From: an uncultured Chlamydiales bacterium
GTDB lineage: Bacteria > Chlamydiota > Chlamydiia > Chlamydiales > Rhabdochlamydiaceae
Direction: 5' to 3'
Length of the DNA: 64,000 nucleotides
Assembly: GCA_963700985.1 (NCBI GenBank)
Contig: OY969554.1
Coordinates: 1,632,001-1,696,000 of the forward strand
A program made the translations under genes and the position numbers. The notes under the pieces are model-generated. The model saw only the letters and a list, made by a program, of their open reading frames with translations. It did no database searches and was not told the DNA's origin. Positions 59,853 through 64,000 of this stretch are shown piece after piece. The number at the start of each line of letters is the position of its first letter. The stretch's first letter is position 1.

Positions 59853-60665
59853 TCACCAGATGAGCTTTGGAGTATAATACTCAGGTATTAAAGCTTGGTT
59901 TGAATAAGGGCCTTGGGTCTGTCCAGTGATTCCGCTTAAGACTAAAAGAGAATCAATCCCTGCTCTTTTGGCGAAAAGAACATCGGTTTCCAATGTATCT
60001 CCTATCATAAGCCCTTTTTTGCCTTTTAACGTCGGTTGTAGTTGTAAAAGATACTCATAGATGTTTCTTTCTGGCTTGCCCATATATTGCACATTCACAC
60101 CCCTCTCCTCCAATAATAAGGCAAAAGTTCCAGCGCAGATTCTATTTATGCCACCATGGGGCGCAATTTTATCCGGATTAGCACATAGGACTACAAGGCC
60201 AGATTTGGCAACGCAATCTATCTCATTAAGGTAGCTGTCCATTTCAACTTTGTCCTTCACATTTAGCGTAAGAACTATCAGTTCTGCCTCTTCCAGTCTG
60301 TCCACGGTTTTTACAGATAATCCACTGCCCATGAAAAGCTCTGTATTTCCTTTAGATCCAAGATGGAAAATATTTTTTATAGAAGGATAGTTGTTTTGAA
60401 GGTCGTCTAAGACAAGCTCTCCCGACGTGATTACCTGAATGTTAGGATCGATACCGAAGGCTTGAATTTTTTGCTGAATGATCCAATTTCTTCTGGGATT
60501 GTTGCTAAGAAAATAAATAGGTTTTTTCAGACTTAGACGATTGACGCAGTCGATCGCTTCTGGGAAGCCTGCTACTCCATCGTGGATAACTCCATGGATA
60601 TCCACGAGAAAAAAGTCGTATTTAGCAATAAGAGAAGAAGCTTTCTCCACGTATTGCGAAATCAT
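59853..60665 (-). CDS. HAD-superfamily hydrolase, subfamily IIA
   Basis: DIHGVIHDG, LSNN, CANPD, GKP and IGDTLETD motifs; ATGA overlap with the upstream gene. Confidence 0.9.
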   Translation of the reverse strand: MISQYVEKASSLIAKYDFFLVDIHGVIHDGVAGFPEAIDCVNRLSLKKPIYFLSNNPRRNWIIQQKIQAFGIDPNIQVITSGELVLDDLQNNYPSIKNIFHLGSKGNTELFMGSGLSVKTVDRLEEAELIVLTLNVKDKVEMDSYLNEIDCVAKSGLVVLCANPDKIAPHGGINRICAGTFALLLEERGVNVQYMGKPERNIYEYLLQLQPTLKGKKGLMIGDTLETDVLFAKRAGIDSLLVLSGITGQTQGPYSNQALIPEYYTPKLIW

Positions 60666-61492
60666 TTACGAAAGAGAATAGATGTAAGTGTCTGATTCGT
60701 AGTCGCTATAACACGTTGGATTGCTCGAAGAGAGAGGCAATCTTCTTCATTCAGGGGCGCACAAAGGGCGCTGCGTACACCGATAGTTGTTCTACATATG
60801 ATGCGCACATCTTCTTTAGCTGTTTCAATGATCTGTCGAACAATTTCTCGCTTTGGGATGGCTAAGACTCCTACTACAATCGCATCATATTCCGAACAGT
60901 CCACTTTTTGCCCTTCGGCCACTAGTATTTTGATTTGCGCTTCCATTTTCATAGTTGACAGGACCTGCCTGGCAATTTGTGCGCGTTCAGGAAGTTTTTC
61001 AACACAGTGCAGATGACATCCTGTCTTTTTGACATAATGAATGGCCGTAATTGGAAAAGCTCCACCTCCAATAAATAACACCTTATCCTTAGATGAAACT
61101 TTTAAAAGAGCTGTCTCATCTCGCGCAAGAGCATTAAACCTCTCGAGATAGGGATGGAATAGGGGATTGTTTGATCGCATAAAATGATTATTTAATCCTT
61201 CATGAATCATTGCATGAGAAAAGGTTCTTTCAATGCAACTATCTACAAATGCATTGAGTTTTCGTGAACGTTCGATAAGGGGCTGATTTTCTGGGGAATT
61301 CATGAACGCTTTTTGATCCTCAAAACTAAGCATGTCACTCAGGATGAGATGTTCAAGAGAATTAAGAGTTGTGAAGCTCTCTTCTTCATCTGCATCGTTT
61401 TGTAAAGAATTCAAAATTGATGCAAAGTTTGTTTGAAAGCGTTGCAAGGGTGTTCCGTGAACTGTTGGATATTGATCTAAAACTGCAGACAT
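60662..61492 (-). CDS. Nicotianamine synthase-like SAM-dependent aminocarboxypropyl transferase
   Basis: Helical N-terminal domain with IERTFS and HPYLERF..L...E; KVLFIGGGAFPITAI; PKREI; CRTTIGVRSAL. Confidence 0.75.
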   Translation of the reverse strand: MSAVLDQYPTVHGTPLQRFQTNFASILNSLQNDADEEESFTTLNSLEHLILSDMLSFEDQKAFMNSPENQPLIERSRKLNAFVDSCIERTFSHAMIHEGLNNHFMRSNNPLFHPYLERFNALARDETALLKVSSKDKVLFIGGGAFPITAIHYVKKTGCHLHCVEKLPERAQIARQVLSTMKMEAQIKILVAEGQKVDCSEYDAIVVGVLAIPKREIVRQIIETAKEDVRIICRTTIGVRSALCAPLNEEDCLSLRAIQRVIATTNQTLTSILFRK

Positions 61493-61493
61493 T

Positions 61494-62222
61494 TTATTTC
61501 TCCTTAGTGCCAATAAGTATAACGTTTTCTCGGCCATCAAGTTTTATATATTCCGGAATACCTCTTCTATTAAAGAGACAGCACTCTTCAATATGAAAAC
61601 CCGCTTTCGCAAAGGTTCTTCGCAACACTACTTCATCTAGAGCATGAAAAAATGAAGGAAGTTCCTGAACAGTTGGATCGTCGGTCAAACTTTGTAAATT
61701 GTGAAATTCGCCAGGCCACCTAGCATTCTGACTTTTTCTCTCTTCATAGAGGGTAATTAGTTTTTTAAGATTATTTGTATAAACAGTGCCAGAAATCGTG
61801 AAAATTTTTCCTCCCGGAGCAAGCCAGGAAAAAAACAGCTCGGCGGCAAGTTCCAACTGATCGCCTGAAAGAAAATGGAGAACCTGTGATGCTAAAATAG
61901 CCGAAAGAGAGCCTTTGGCTATTTTAAGGTCTCGCAAAAAATGCCCTTCTCTTAGCTCTAAATTTTCACGAAATTCAGCAGGACAGGCAGCAGCAATTTT
62001 TTCCAAATGCCGCGCATCTATGTCATTTGCGATAACGCGTGCTCTATTGCAAAGAGCTGGAAGAGTGGCCACACCGAATGCAGCTCCAATGTCGAGAACA
62101 GGCTTTTTTGCCTCTGCTGCAAACTCAATAAATTGTTCCATGATTTCATTCGGGGCAAGAGCAGTACGGCCCTGTTGGTTACAGGTGATTGTCGATGAAT
62201 TTTTTCCTAATTCTTTTAACAT
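61494..62222 (-). CDS. Class I SAM-binding enzyme, AzeJ/VioH-like (candidate azetidine-2-carboxylate synthase)
   Basis: TCNQQG, VLDIGAAFGVATL.AL, NDID..HL, ASQVLHFL, WLAPGGK, YEERK...WPG and GRENV pattern. Confidence 0.7.
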   Translation of the reverse strand: MLKELGKNSSTITCNQQGRTALAPNEIMEQFIEFAAEAKKPVLDIGAAFGVATLPALCNRARVIANDIDARHLEKIAAACPAEFRENLELREGHFLRDLKIAKGSLSAILASQVLHFLSGDQLELAAELFFSWLAPGGKIFTISGTVYTNNLKKLITLYEERKSQNARWPGEFHNLQSLTDDPTVQELPSFFHALDEVVLRRTFAKAGFHIEECCLFNRRGIPEYIKLDGRENVILIGTKEK

Positions 62223-63370
62223 GCACCCACCAGTTCAGAATAATTATGAGAGTGTTCGGCGAAAGCTACATACTTTGCGCGAAGTTCCAGAGCACATTGA
62301 TAACTCTCTTCAACGGTCATTCTATGACATTCATAGCCCAGCACTTCTTTCATTATCTGCATATTTTCAGGGCTAAAATGCACAGTTCCATCATCTTCAA
62401 TGTGTGAGACACCTTCAAGATATTGTGCCTTTTTATTAATCTGAACAGCCTCATCCAAAGTAAGATTAGCCGAAAGATCAACCCTTAGGCTTTTTCCATC
62501 CATCCACAGCGGATATCCTCCCGGAAGTCCTTGGGGTCCTGGGGCATGAAGAAGGGTGCTCTTATTATGTAAAGCTGCCATGACGACCTTGATTGCTGAG
62601 GTTGCCGTCATCGGTTGTCCCTCGAGACCTACCAGTCTTCTATACTGTACAGGAACAGCAGAGAAAACTGTTTTTTGATCAATGCTTTCCGTAATGTCTC
62701 TTCCTTCAAGTAGAGCAGTGTAATGAAATAGCTCAGGATCGGGATATCCGTGACGGGAGATATAGTGAGAGATGTAATGATGGGCCACAAGTCGAACCAC
62801 TACATCTTTCGGATGTTTTTGCAAGTAGGCAGCAGTAGAATATTGCAATGCCGGGATGACATTTGCGACATTGCCAATTCCCGTATTGGGTGTAAGTCCG
62901 ATTTTGCCCAGTACTGGATTGACAATGTCCGGAAAGGCCGCATTGATAAAAAAAGAATCTATGCCACTTTTTTTGATTCCCCTAGCGATGTTATATGCGA
63001 GGGGTAGATGCATGGGAAGCCATGGCCCCAAATATGCAGCATTGATCTTTTGATAAGCTATCTTAGGAAGCTCTGTGACGATTCGCCAAGATTGAATGCT
63101 TGCAGCATTGAAAATCACTTCTGGCTTGTGCTTAGTGATTAATTCAGCGATCTGATCCACTCGAGTCAGCTCGACGTTTTCAAAAGCCACATGAGGATAG
63201 AGTCCAAATTGAGAAGCAGTAAGCATCGCCATGTTACTTTTGCGCAGCAACAAATCAGAATTTCGGCCCACCACTACAAATTTGACGGTCTGATTCTCTG
63301 GCATTTTGGTCATTATATCGAGAACATGTGTTCCGATATTTCCCAATCCAAAAATCATTAAAACTGGCAT
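62216..63370 (-). CDS. NAD(P)-binding Rossmann oxidoreductase of unknown specificity (saccharopine dehydrogenase/LDH-like)
   Basis: IFGLGNIG, VVGRN, INAAFPDIVNPVL, GIGNV and GPQGLPGGYP; GAGAGG RBS before the ATG at 63370. Confidence 0.65.
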   Translation of the reverse strand: MPVLMIFGLGNIGTHVLDIMTKMPENQTVKFVVVGRNSDLLLRKSNMAMLTASQFGLYPHVAFENVELTRVDQIAELITKHKPEVIFNAASIQSWRIVTELPKIAYQKINAAYLGPWLPMHLPLAYNIARGIKKSGIDSFFINAAFPDIVNPVLGKIGLTPNTGIGNVANVIPALQYSTAAYLQKHPKDVVVRLVAHHYISHYISRHGYPDPELFHYTALLEGRDITESIDQKTVFSAVPVQYRRLVGLEGQPMTATSAIKVVMAALHNKSTLLHAPGPQGLPGGYPLWMDGKSLRVDLSANLTLDEAVQINKKAQYLEGVSHIEDDGTVHFSPENMQIMKEVLGYECHRMTVEESYQCALELRAKYVAFAEHSHNYSELVGAC

Positions 63371-63378
63371 ACGACCTC

Positions 63379-64000
63379 TCAATCTACATAAAAGAAAGCA
63401 GGAAATATTTCGTTAGCGTCGGTCTCGACCCGAATCTGCCTGACTTCTCGGACAACTTGTTCTGGATCACCCGCCATTACAGCAATCCAGGCATAATCAC
63501 TATTTCCTATCGCGGATACATGAGCATGATCTTTAGCTACCATTGTGTGAGTGCATTGCATGCCTTCGGGAAGATAAACTTTCTTAAAATTACTTTCTTG
63601 GGGCAACCCATAACCGATACAAATACTTGGTTTTGGATCCGGTCTATAAGAAAAGAAAGGCAAGTGTTTTCCGCCAAAAATACCCACGTCGATGATATGT
63701 TGTGCAATTTCTACGGGAGTTTTCCCAAATGAGTAAGCGAGTTGTTCTATCATGGCAGCTCCCCCCATTCTTCCGAAATTGGCATCGATCAAATACGCCC
63801 CTGAATCATTGACTAAAAATTCGCAGTGGAAGTAACCATTTTTAAACGTCGATCTTTCGATCAAAGTATTGATCTCTTTGAACATGAGAGATGCGTTTTT
63901 TTGAATAAGAGGATCATTGTTACGCGGGAAATGACATGCCGTTTCTGTCATGGCAATGCGCGATCTTCCTGTAAATCCTAAAAAGGCTGGTTTCCCTTCA
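63379..64000 (-). CDS. ATP-grasp ligase, C-terminal part; 5' end lies beyond the window
   Basis: Frame is open to the window edge (EGKPAFLGFTGRSRIAM...); ATP-grasp signature FHCEF...YLIDANFGRMGG. Confidence 0.75.
   Translation of the reverse strand, partial: EGKPAFLGFTGRSRIAMTETACHFPRNNDPLIQKNASLMFKEINTLIERSTFKNGYFHCEFLVNDSGAYLIDANFGRMGGAAMIEQLAYSFGKTPVEIAQHIIDVGIFGGKHLPFFSYRPDPKPSICIGYGLPQESNFKKVYLPEGMQCTHTMVAKDHAHVSAIGNSDYAWIAVMAGDPEQVVREVRQIRVETDANEIFPAFFYVD

Follow-up and report, generated by a model that had tools for sequence, protein, structure and literature searches.

A probable five-gene operon for a small SAM-derived molecule, horizontally acquired by an uncultured member of the Chlamydiales and without an azetidine-2-carboxylate synthase

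From the analysis presented here, we propose that an uncultured bacterium of the Rhabdochlamydiaceae (Chlamydiales) carries an operon, complete with five genes and acquired horizontally, for the biosynthesis of a small molecule derived from S-adenosylmethionine (SAM), and that this operon does not include a synthase for azetidine-2-carboxylate (AZE). We assign this proposal a probability of roughly 0.55. The operon is at the end of a 64,000-nucleotide stretch of contig OY969554.1 (hereafter the window), which represents positions 1632001-1696000 of a single-contig genome of 2,067,302 bp that is 99% complete. All five genes are on the minus strand. In the direction of transcription, they encode an ATP-grasp protein of the L-amino-acid-ligase type (451 amino acids (aa); 63379-64734, with the C-terminal 206 codons inside the window), an NAD(P)-dependent dehydrogenase with a predicted structure of the lactate/malate dehydrogenase (LDH/MDH) type (384 aa; 62216-63370, with the ATG at 63370 and a TTG at 63382 that is also open), a class I SAM-dependent methyltransferase recognised by Pfam, by profile matches in the Protein Data Bank (PDB) and by its AlphaFold model (242 aa; 61494-62222), a SAM aminocarboxypropyl transferase resembling nicotianamine synthase (NAS) and matching PF03059 (276 aa, database gene call P0200; 60662-61492, with the longest open reading frame (ORF) starting at 61540), and a HAD-IIA hydrolase of the TIGR01459 type, a predicted phosphatase according to TIGR01459 and Pfam (270 aa; 59853-60665).

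A first-pass annotation, made from the window alone, had described five co-oriented minus-strand genes directly after a tRNA-Lys gene, with the last one running off the window edge, and in these respects it was accurate. The five ORFs are intact and tightly packed, and the ORF coordinates agree with all four of the junctions that it quoted: two pairs of genes overlap, by 4 nt and 7 nt, and two are separated, by 1 nt and 8 nt. Between tRNA-Lys and the stop codon of the HAD gene there are 475 bp. In the whole-genome sequence (the next 14 kb, referred to as locus L002), the ATP-grasp gene ends 734 bp past the window edge, at window-equivalent position 64734 (L002 5379-6734), and upstream of it an 812-bp spacer is followed by a divergent WD40 gene. 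Thus, because the ATP-grasp gene is completed outside the window and is bounded by the spacer and the divergent gene, the operon consists of exactly five genes. Retrieval of the upstream contig, as the annotation had suggested, completed the cluster in this way, but neither a transporter nor an integrase was found in it. A sigma-70-like promoter site (TTGACA-17-TAAAAT, an 11/12 match; L002 6807-6779, outside the window) is located ~45 nt upstream of the operon, and a GAGG ribosome-binding site precedes the ATG of the ATP-grasp gene by 5-6 nt. At the other end, a terminator-like hairpin with a 9-bp stem followed by a T run (59650-59671, minus strand; L002 1671-1650) is present ~180 nt downstream of the HAD stop codon; this hairpin is a consensus match only, with 6 such sites found versus 5.5 expected from shuffles. 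Just upstream of the -35 hexamer, there is an 8-bp perfect palindrome, GCACGTGC, with A runs on either side (L002 ~6812-6826, minus strand), which as a sequence feature is a possible candidate for a regulator binding site.

Over residues 80-289, the NAS-like protein matches the Pfam NAS family PF03059 (35.4 bits; cut-off 27.1), and PF03059 is present in all seven members of the small clade to which it belongs. Among solved structures, the protein is closest to the archaeal thermonicotianamine synthase MtNAS (3fpe; 4e-20 over residues 52-289, ~238 residues), while the CntL structures align at 3e-7 over residues 133-265 and the score against the CntL equivalog NF033601 is 45.2 bits with a cut-off of 350. 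MtNAS (3fpe, 3fpf, 3o31) and the NAS-like protein are both short, core-only NAS proteins, and they have in common a glycine-rich SAM motif and a Glu equivalent to E81 of MtNAS, which is invariant in 7/7 clade members. We take E81 and Y107 of MtNAS to be active-site residues with catalytic roles. The NAS-like protein differs from MtNAS in having Phe in place of Tyr107, in belonging to a small separate clade and in being encoded in an operon with four other enzymes.

For the five gene products, the first-pass annotation had proposed an AZE synthase, a NAS, an ATP-grasp protein, an oxidoreductase and a HAD protein. The last four assignments hold, with the oxidoreductase being NAD(P)-dependent, while the assignment of the 242-aa protein as an AZE synthase does not. 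The annotation had built a split route on this assignment, in which the 242-aa protein would be an AzeJ/VioH-type enzyme that supplies AZE as the starter for the NAS-like enzyme, resulting in nicotianamine or an analogue that contains AZE. We consider this route extremely improbable. In Pfam and NCBIfam, the 242-aa protein matches generic methyltransferase models only (Methyltransf_25, _11 and _12 in Pfam), and its SAM-binding motifs are intact (VLDIGAAFG, D67). A phmmer search against all PDB chains gave five matches at E<=1, i.e. phosphoethanolamine N-methyltransferases, a class I methyltransferase and rRNA methyltransferases. A profile built from the query and 38 of its 78 database homologues placed plant phosphoethanolamine N-methyltransferases on top (7e-16 and 2.7e-14), with the N-terminal methyltransferase CypM next (1.1e-9). 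AzeJ and VioH are neither among the five sequence matches nor among the best 60 of the 231 profile matches, assuming that 8RYD-8RYG are included in the 2026 copy of the PDB used. According to PMC11794875, in which homologues were accepted at >=27% identity, >=60% coverage and E<=1e-5, all AzeJ homologues carry the motifs 17-FY-18, 133-PFNxxGN-139 and 172-RxxYYxxC-179. In a regular-expression scan of the 39 aligned sequences, each of the three motifs, i.e. FY near the N-terminus, PFNxxGN and RxxYYxxC, occurred in 0/39, as did a loosened PFN pattern.

The predicted structure is less informative. The AlphaFold model of the 242-aa protein (pLDDT 95.6) has the class I (MT1) methyltransferase fold, which AzeJ shares, and fold searches with it (Foldseek and VIA-align wide) returned a flat list of generic class I methyltransferases, with the top 50 rows at Z 16.3-18.6. 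Because the top of this list is flat, structure does not discriminate for this protein. AzeJ and VioH are not among the listed rows. In favor of the split route, 5UFM, which is the closest structural relative of AzeJ (PMC11794875), lies within the tied top group (Z 18.4); the 242-aa gene adjoins the NAS-like gene; and AzeJ-like genes are often found beside ATP-grasp genes (PMC11794875, legend of Fig. 4). On the other side, relatives of the 242-aa protein at ~40% identity occur singly, with transporters, sensor kinases or a monooxygenase as neighbours, and some of them are fused to a GNAT domain. Moreover, the contexts described for AzeJ and VioH (8RYD-8RYG) in PMC11794875 contain a nonribosomal peptide synthetase, a radical-SAM enzyme or a tRNA ligase, none of which is found around this operon. 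In other words, the 242-aa protein resembles AzeJ and VioH in its class I methyltransferase fold and in SAM binding but has none of their three motifs and no detectable sequence match to them, and its nearest characterised relatives are genuine N-methyltransferases. From its sequence, we regard it as a methyltransferase that is probably N-directed. One of its homologues is labelled 'Chlamydiales bacterium'. A separate AZE synthase is also not required, because plant NAS closes the azetidine ring itself (PMC11794875).

The dehydrogenase has no Pfam or NCBIfam match above cut-off, including Ldh_1 of Pfam, and contains a GxGxxG motif. Its 379 relatives are mostly proteins of ~375 aa labelled 'hypothetical' or 'saccharopine dehydrogenase NADP-binding', many of them in Pseudomonas and Streptomyces. 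In a VIA-align wide search with its model (pLDDT 95.2), the malate dehydrogenases 9sc9 and 6qss both reach Z 23.7 (283 and 279 residues aligned with root-mean-square deviations of 3.4 and 3.3 Å), while enzymes of the GH4 family reach Z ~20 and saccharopine dehydrogenases Z 10-12. Foldseek similarly has LDH and MDH on top. Judged by the model, the protein is a two-domain LDH/MDH-fold dehydrogenase of an uncharacterised family. In a weak alignment to LDH (E 0.28), the NxxxPD motif and His H202 line up and no counterpart of the substrate-binding Arg is seen. A saccharopine or opine dehydrogenase reading was considered and rejected in favor of the LDH/MDH fold, given weak profile matches (carboxyspermidine dehydrogenase, E 0.014) and the Z scores of 10-12; in the ESM Atlas, the oxidoreductase falls into clusters that are either unnamed or labelled 'saccharopine dehydrogenase NADP-binding'.

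The HAD protein scores 162.7 bits against TIGR01459 (cut-off 103.75) and matches Hydrolase_like and Hydrolase_6 in Pfam. The HAD motifs are legible in its sequence (D22, S54-N-N, K197 and D212/D217), with motif I reading D22-I-H24, i.e. with a His where a second Asp is usual. Its best PDB match, 6nq4 (2e-22), has D-V-W at this motif, and from these sequences the TIGR01459 branch may lack the usual general acid/base Asp. Among the best 80 of 525 confirmed genome loci of the dehydrogenase family, 56 have an adjoining HAD hydrolase gene on the same strand; these loci are interrelated and do not count as independent. This pairing is a hint that the substrate is phosphorylated.

In the ATP-grasp protein, two Pfam models score above cut-off (PF13535, ATP-grasp_4, with 33.2 bits and PF02655, ATP-grasp_3, with 29.4 bits), and its family has ~100 representatives at E<1e-30 and invariant Lys, Glu and Asn positions. 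With a profile of the query and 31 of its 150 listed relatives, the L-amino-acid ligases BL00235 (3.3e-9) and BacD (5.3e-9) are closest in the PDB; moreover, two family members match the model of the dapdiamide synthase DdaF and one that of BacD. On this sequence evidence, we classify the protein as an ATP-grasp enzyme of the L-amino-acid-ligase type. BacD/YwfE, BL00235 and DdaF are thus its nearest solved or curated relatives, and in their clusters, as here, the ligase is part of a small-molecule operon; however, the similarity is remote (profile E ~1e-9) and the protein described here has an N-terminal extension. The first ~24 residues are hydrophobic and resemble a Sec signal (L002 6663-6734, window-equivalent 64663-64734). 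Similar hydrophobic extensions are found in P0209 (52% identity), P0231 and P0236, while most relatives start at approximately residue 39 of the query. An exported ATP-dependent ligase would be odd.

These properties of the ligase bear on an alternative, in which the operon makes a Trojan-horse dipeptide antimetabolite in the style of bacilysin, tabtoxin, rhizocticin or dapdiamide. Four of the enzymes would build an unusual amino acid from SAM, the ATP-grasp enzyme would add the carrier, and the product would target the host or competing microbes. The relationship to BL00235, BacD and DdaF is as expected for such a pathway, the ligase gene is the first of the operon, and a signal-like N-terminus, suggesting an exported ligase, together with the lack of metal-uptake genes fits a toxin better than a metallophore. 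Conversely, the island has no exporter or self-resistance gene, and we know of no warhead pathway with a NAS-like enzyme. In addition, the characterised products of the NAS family that PMC10248798 and PMC7438024 name are all metal chelators. We regard an antimetabolite as unlikely.

Several lines of evidence support that the operon was acquired horizontally. The NAS-like gene has no match beyond its own genome in overlapping samples from the phylum (400 scored genomes), the family (129) and the order (400), with one genome left unscored, and the dehydrogenase, ATP-grasp and HAD genes are each found in 0/5 genomes of the same genus. The methyltransferase family is present in two of these five, at other loci and with 40% and 29% identity. 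Across the phylum, the dehydrogenase has one distant match (28% identity) and the ATP-grasp protein has one full-length match at 34% as well as five weak partial matches. Synteny with two genomes of the genus extends through pyrH, frr and the tRNA genes, where it stops (last matches at ~L002 1298-1330), and resumes at the ispD-SDR gene. Here, the interval from tRNA-Lys to the ispD-SDR gene spans 9.2 kb, compared to ~5.5 and 5.2 kb in these two relatives, and its content is unrelated. The first-pass annotation had noted that the genes look more AT-rich than flanking housekeeping genes, which is true although the difference is modest: the operon has a GC content of 41.7% compared to 44.8% for the genome, corresponding to the 6th percentile of 4,125 windows of the same size, and GC at third codon positions is 0.31-0.39 in the operon genes and 0.44-0.48 in rpsB, tsf, pyrH and frr. 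Based on the confinement of the NAS-like gene to one genome, the absence of three of its partners from five genomes of the genus, the break in synteny and the low GC content, we conclude that the operon is a horizontally acquired insertion in a spot that varies between species of the genus.

The Pfam matches of the variable region include no integrase family, and the region contains no direct repeat of the tRNA-Lys 3' end of the attachment-site type. A search of viral contigs with the alignment of the NAS clade gave 80 candidate stretches, none of which was confirmed, and a search of plasmids gave two distant CntL-type matches (27-30% identity). The remainder of the variable interval (L002 7547-10566) encodes, besides the divergent WD40-repeat protein of 464 aa, three small ORFs that overlap (137, 144 and 231 aa) and have no Pfam or PADLOC match. 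A WD40 gene is also found beside a homologue of the methyltransferase at another locus (L093), and the two WD40 genes have repeat-level similarity only. In one of the same-genus genomes (G112), the interval holds a run of ORFs of 163-186 aa, and seven scanned ORFs there are without a Pfam match.

The closest homologues suggest that part of the operon is conserved. Among 5.8 billion proteins, the NAS-like protein has only six other relatives of its kind, with 48-80% identity, of which P0203 (60%) is encoded on a 1.74-Mb contig. On a 3,960-bp metagenomic contig, dehydrogenase P0082 (67% identity), methyltransferase P0003 (72%) and NAS-like P0202 (67%) appear together. Two of the three are found on each of three further metagenomic contigs, namely methyltransferase P0002 (84%) and NAS-like P0201 (80%) on 2,102 bp, with no dehydrogenase listed; dehydrogenase P0080 (71%) and methyltransferase P0004 (71%) on 2,630 bp, with no NAS-like protein listed; and dehydrogenase P0083 (58%) and NAS-like P0206 (50%) on 4,653 bp, with no methyltransferase listed. 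Co-location on these four contigs is deduced solely from their identical size and source. This pattern suggests that the dehydrogenase, methyltransferase and NAS-like genes form a conserved core in close relatives. In metagenome contigs from four sequencing runs, we found short, low-depth pieces identical to the operon and tRNAs of other organisms, and no independent copy.

Alternatively, the five genes could be chance neighbours that were brought together by insertion and do not form a single pathway. Homologues of the dehydrogenase, methyltransferase and ATP-grasp protein at ~30-45% identity are each found in quite different clusters, as would be expected in this case. However, the genes overlap or abut, only one promoter-like and one terminator-like site frame them, and three or more of them appear to recur together in close relatives. 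For these reasons, we consider a chance assembly highly unlikely.

What is observed here is the gene order, the intact motifs and the family or fold of each protein; the chemistry of a five-gene pathway is derived from the chemistry of the families. In the pathway that we propose, the NAS-like enzyme would first move at least one 3-amino-3-carboxypropyl unit from SAM to the amino group of an amino-acid-type starter, with release of methylthioadenosine. The class I methyltransferase would then methylate the intermediate, most likely on nitrogen. The LDH/MDH-fold enzyme would catalyse an NAD(P)H-dependent redox step, either the reduction of a 2-oxo-acid to a 2-hydroxy-acid or a reductive condensation, and in this role would be the counterpart of CntM in bacterial opine metallophore synthesis and of DMAS in plants. 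The ATP-grasp enzyme would form an amide bond to another amino acid, and the HAD-IIA enzyme would dephosphorylate a precursor or an intermediate. The expected product is a nicotianamine-like pseudopeptide that is methylated, has several carboxylates and bears an aminocarboxypropyl group.

The design of this pathway is similar in part to two known routes. As in the CntKLM/CntLM systems for the opine metallophores staphylopine, pseudopaline and yersinopine, a NAS-family transferase is combined with an NAD(P)H-dependent enzyme within one operon. By contrast, the operon described here has no CntL orthologue, no CntM of family PF10100, no histidine racemase, no exporter and no importer, while the ATP-grasp and HAD enzymes are additional. 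Where PMC7438024 reports the distribution of CntM, homologues are present in four phyla only, and Chlamydiota is not among them; the same source describes some predicted zincophore clusters with an extra PF13649 methyltransferase. The second comparison is with the synthesis of mugineic acids by NAS, NAAT and DMAS. In this plant route, further processing of the NAS product includes the reduction of a 2-oxo acid by DMAS, an aldo-keto reductase. A reductase thus follows NAS in both cases; however, the operon has no aminotransferase, its reductase is of another family, and the route to mugineic acids has no counterpart of the ATP-grasp, methyltransferase and HAD enzymes.

Several considerations weigh against the proposed pathway. 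The starter, the order of the steps and the product are all guesses. In the NAS-like clade, the position of MtNAS Y107 is Phe in 7/7 members. The dehydrogenase is not of the CntM type, as it has no PF10100 match and an LDH/MDH fold, and the signal-peptide-like N-terminus read from the ATP-grasp sequence is hard to reconcile with an ATP-dependent step in the cytoplasm. Between tRNA-Lys and the ispD-SDR gene, where the five enzymes, the WD40 protein and the three small ORFs are encoded, there is no gene for an exporter, importer or receptor, while characterised cnt clusters include transport genes (PMC7438024); the nearest major facilitator superfamily (MFS) gene lies in the syntenic part that is shared with the relatives. 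No metal-regulator binding site was identified. The distribution of homologues points the same way. Among the 80 dehydrogenase loci, neither NAS, the methyltransferase nor a HAD like the one here is found, and a weak ATP-grasp match occurs in one; the four partner genes are likewise found in 0/15 metagenome loci of the methyltransferase family. When contigs were matched by size, no relative of the ATP-grasp protein was linked to the core contigs, and the HAD, which was not searched in the protein collections, was not seen with the core outside this genome. The first-pass annotation had proposed the co-occurrence of homologues elsewhere as a test, and the result is divided: the distant homologues are apart, while the closest metagenomic homologues appear together, as judged from equal contig size only.

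With respect to function, metal binding is, by analogy with all characterised NAS products, the most likely single role for the product, and we suggest it tentatively. The operon is without transport genes and the ligase looks exported, and the role may instead be that of an antimetabolite or lie in modification of the envelope. In the second of these, the enzymes would modify a macromolecule or lipid, for instance an envelope component, following the logic of diphthamide or betaine-lipid synthesis, and no free metabolite would be made. The predicted combination of aminocarboxypropyl transfer, N-methylation and ATP-dependent amidation parallels the chemistry of diphthamide and of the betaine lipid diacylglyceryltrimethylhomoserine (DGTS), the signal-like N-terminus of the ATP-grasp protein points to the envelope, and a transporter is missing from the locus. 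Conversely, free amino acids are the substrates of those proteins to which the NAS-like protein is related by sequence, and nothing in the neighbourhood points to a target; to our knowledge, the known enzymes of diphthamide and betaine-lipid synthesis belong to other families. We therefore consider macromolecule modification very unlikely.

The genomic context suggests where the SAM for this pathway might come from. The SAM synthetase C-terminal domain (PF02773) was not found in the 99%-complete genome, while the control of this search was positive in 10 of 14 genomes. The ATP/ADP translocase family is represented by two full-length matches and a partial third, and the genome encodes one PNP_UDP_1 protein that could clear methylthioadenosine. 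The translocase matches, the missing SAM synthetase domain and the methyltransferase homologue labelled 'Chlamydiales bacterium' are in line with a chlamydial identity of the organism. Going by these gene contents, the organism probably imports SAM and ATP. Because no SAM synthetase domain was found in the genome, both SAM-using steps would probably draw on host SAM. In its most far-reaching form, our proposal would be that an obligate intracellular bacterium, apparently without SAM synthesis of its own, has captured an undescribed pathway in which host SAM is converted to a new nicotianamine-type compound, with an LDH-fold reductase in place of the opine dehydrogenase of known systems and an exported ligase of the L-amino-acid-ligase type that adds an amide. 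Within the host, this compound would serve to take up or buffer metals or would act on the host cell. Taken as a whole, we consider this scenario doubtful.

Our literature searches found no description of the five-gene combination, in agreement with the first-pass annotation, which had regarded it as undescribed. If the far-reaching scenario above is true, Chlamydiota would gain its first NAS-family pathway, and nicotianamine-like chemistry a new branch. Chelators of the nicotianamine family are central to metal handling in plants, and their opine forms matter for the acquisition of Zn and Ni by several pathogens. In all characterised bacterial systems, CntL is paired with CntM. Here, a NAS clade that is rare and separate is wired to three other enzymes that are uncharacterised or atypical. 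Identification of the product would extend the chemistry of aminocarboxypropyl transfer from SAM and give a first function to a widespread family of LDH-fold 'hypothetical' proteins. The negative result for AZE synthase also illustrates that fold and neighbourhood alone are insufficient to call such an enzyme.

The relatives of the operon proteins occur in further gene clusters. In many Pseudomonas and Streptomyces genomes, the dehydrogenase family is part of a conserved same-strand cluster (loci L003-L082, e.g. L027 4583-12480), and among the 80 dehydrogenase loci, the cluster genes counted were HAD (56), transaldolase/FSA-like (49), sulfotransferase (46), SDR (46), MFS (43) and APS kinase (43). 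The gene content of this cluster suggests an as yet undescribed route to a small molecule that is sulfated, and a literature search found no published description of it. In metagenome-assembled genomes of Desulfobacterales, Thermodesulfobacteriota and Chloroflexia (L005, L011, L020, L028), the dehydrogenase is flanked by a choline-kinase/APH-like kinase (4/80), in some cases with an ornithine cyclodeaminase (3/80). An ATP-grasp homologue with 34% identity is encoded in another genome of the phylum by a nine-gene minus-strand operon (L114 759-10434, G304:C16), together with a Zn-dependent alcohol dehydrogenase (Zn-ADH), an aminotransferase, an MFS protein, a HAD protein, a second Zn-ADH, a class-II DAHP synthase, a GFO/IDH/MocA oxidoreductase and a mitochondrial-carrier-family protein. 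This operon presumably resembles the aminoDAHP/kanosamine part of the pathways to 3-amino-5-hydroxybenzoic acid (AHBA).

In another assembly, a contig of 29,864 bp encodes P0207, a 492-aa protein that falls into the cluster of the NAS-like P0200. There are also fragments with 99% identity to the dehydrogenase (P0081, on a contig of the same size as that of P0207) and to the ATP-grasp protein (P0210 and P0239). A probable source of these four entries is another assembly of almost the same organism, prone to errors and with neighbouring genes fused or split.

Finally, the flanks of the operon and the rest of the window contain some minor features. A tRNA-Glu gene (59219-59295, plus strand; ARAGORN) is followed by the tRNA-Lys (UUU) gene at the border of the variable region in which the operon lies (59303-59377, plus strand; ARAGORN, Rfam tRNA model 75.6 bits), and an Rfam scan of the operon and its flanks gave nothing but these two tRNAs above the curated score. 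With PADLOC, the locus gave a generic methyltransferase-domain match and nothing else. Nine further proteins of the window were scanned against NCBIfam, and none received a name specific to a taxon. The 475 bp between tRNA-Lys and the HAD stop codon contain, besides the terminator-like hairpin, a tandem repeat with two copies of a unit of ~117 nt (59380-59608; families D1 and D3 of the repeat search). By blastn of the unit, these are the only two copies in the whole genome (100% and 81% identity); each copy opens with a T-rich inverted repeat, and the unit matches no Rfam family. Two overlapping minus-strand ORFs of 80-81 aa over the repeat are probably spurious, i.e. artefacts of the repeat. 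Elsewhere in the window, a gene at 30943-32544 encodes a 533-aa protein with repeats that match, at scores far below the cut-offs (best 1.7e-29), the ankyrin-repeat models of Legionella Dot/Icm effectors. It is a eukaryote-like repeat protein, a type common in intracellular bacteria.

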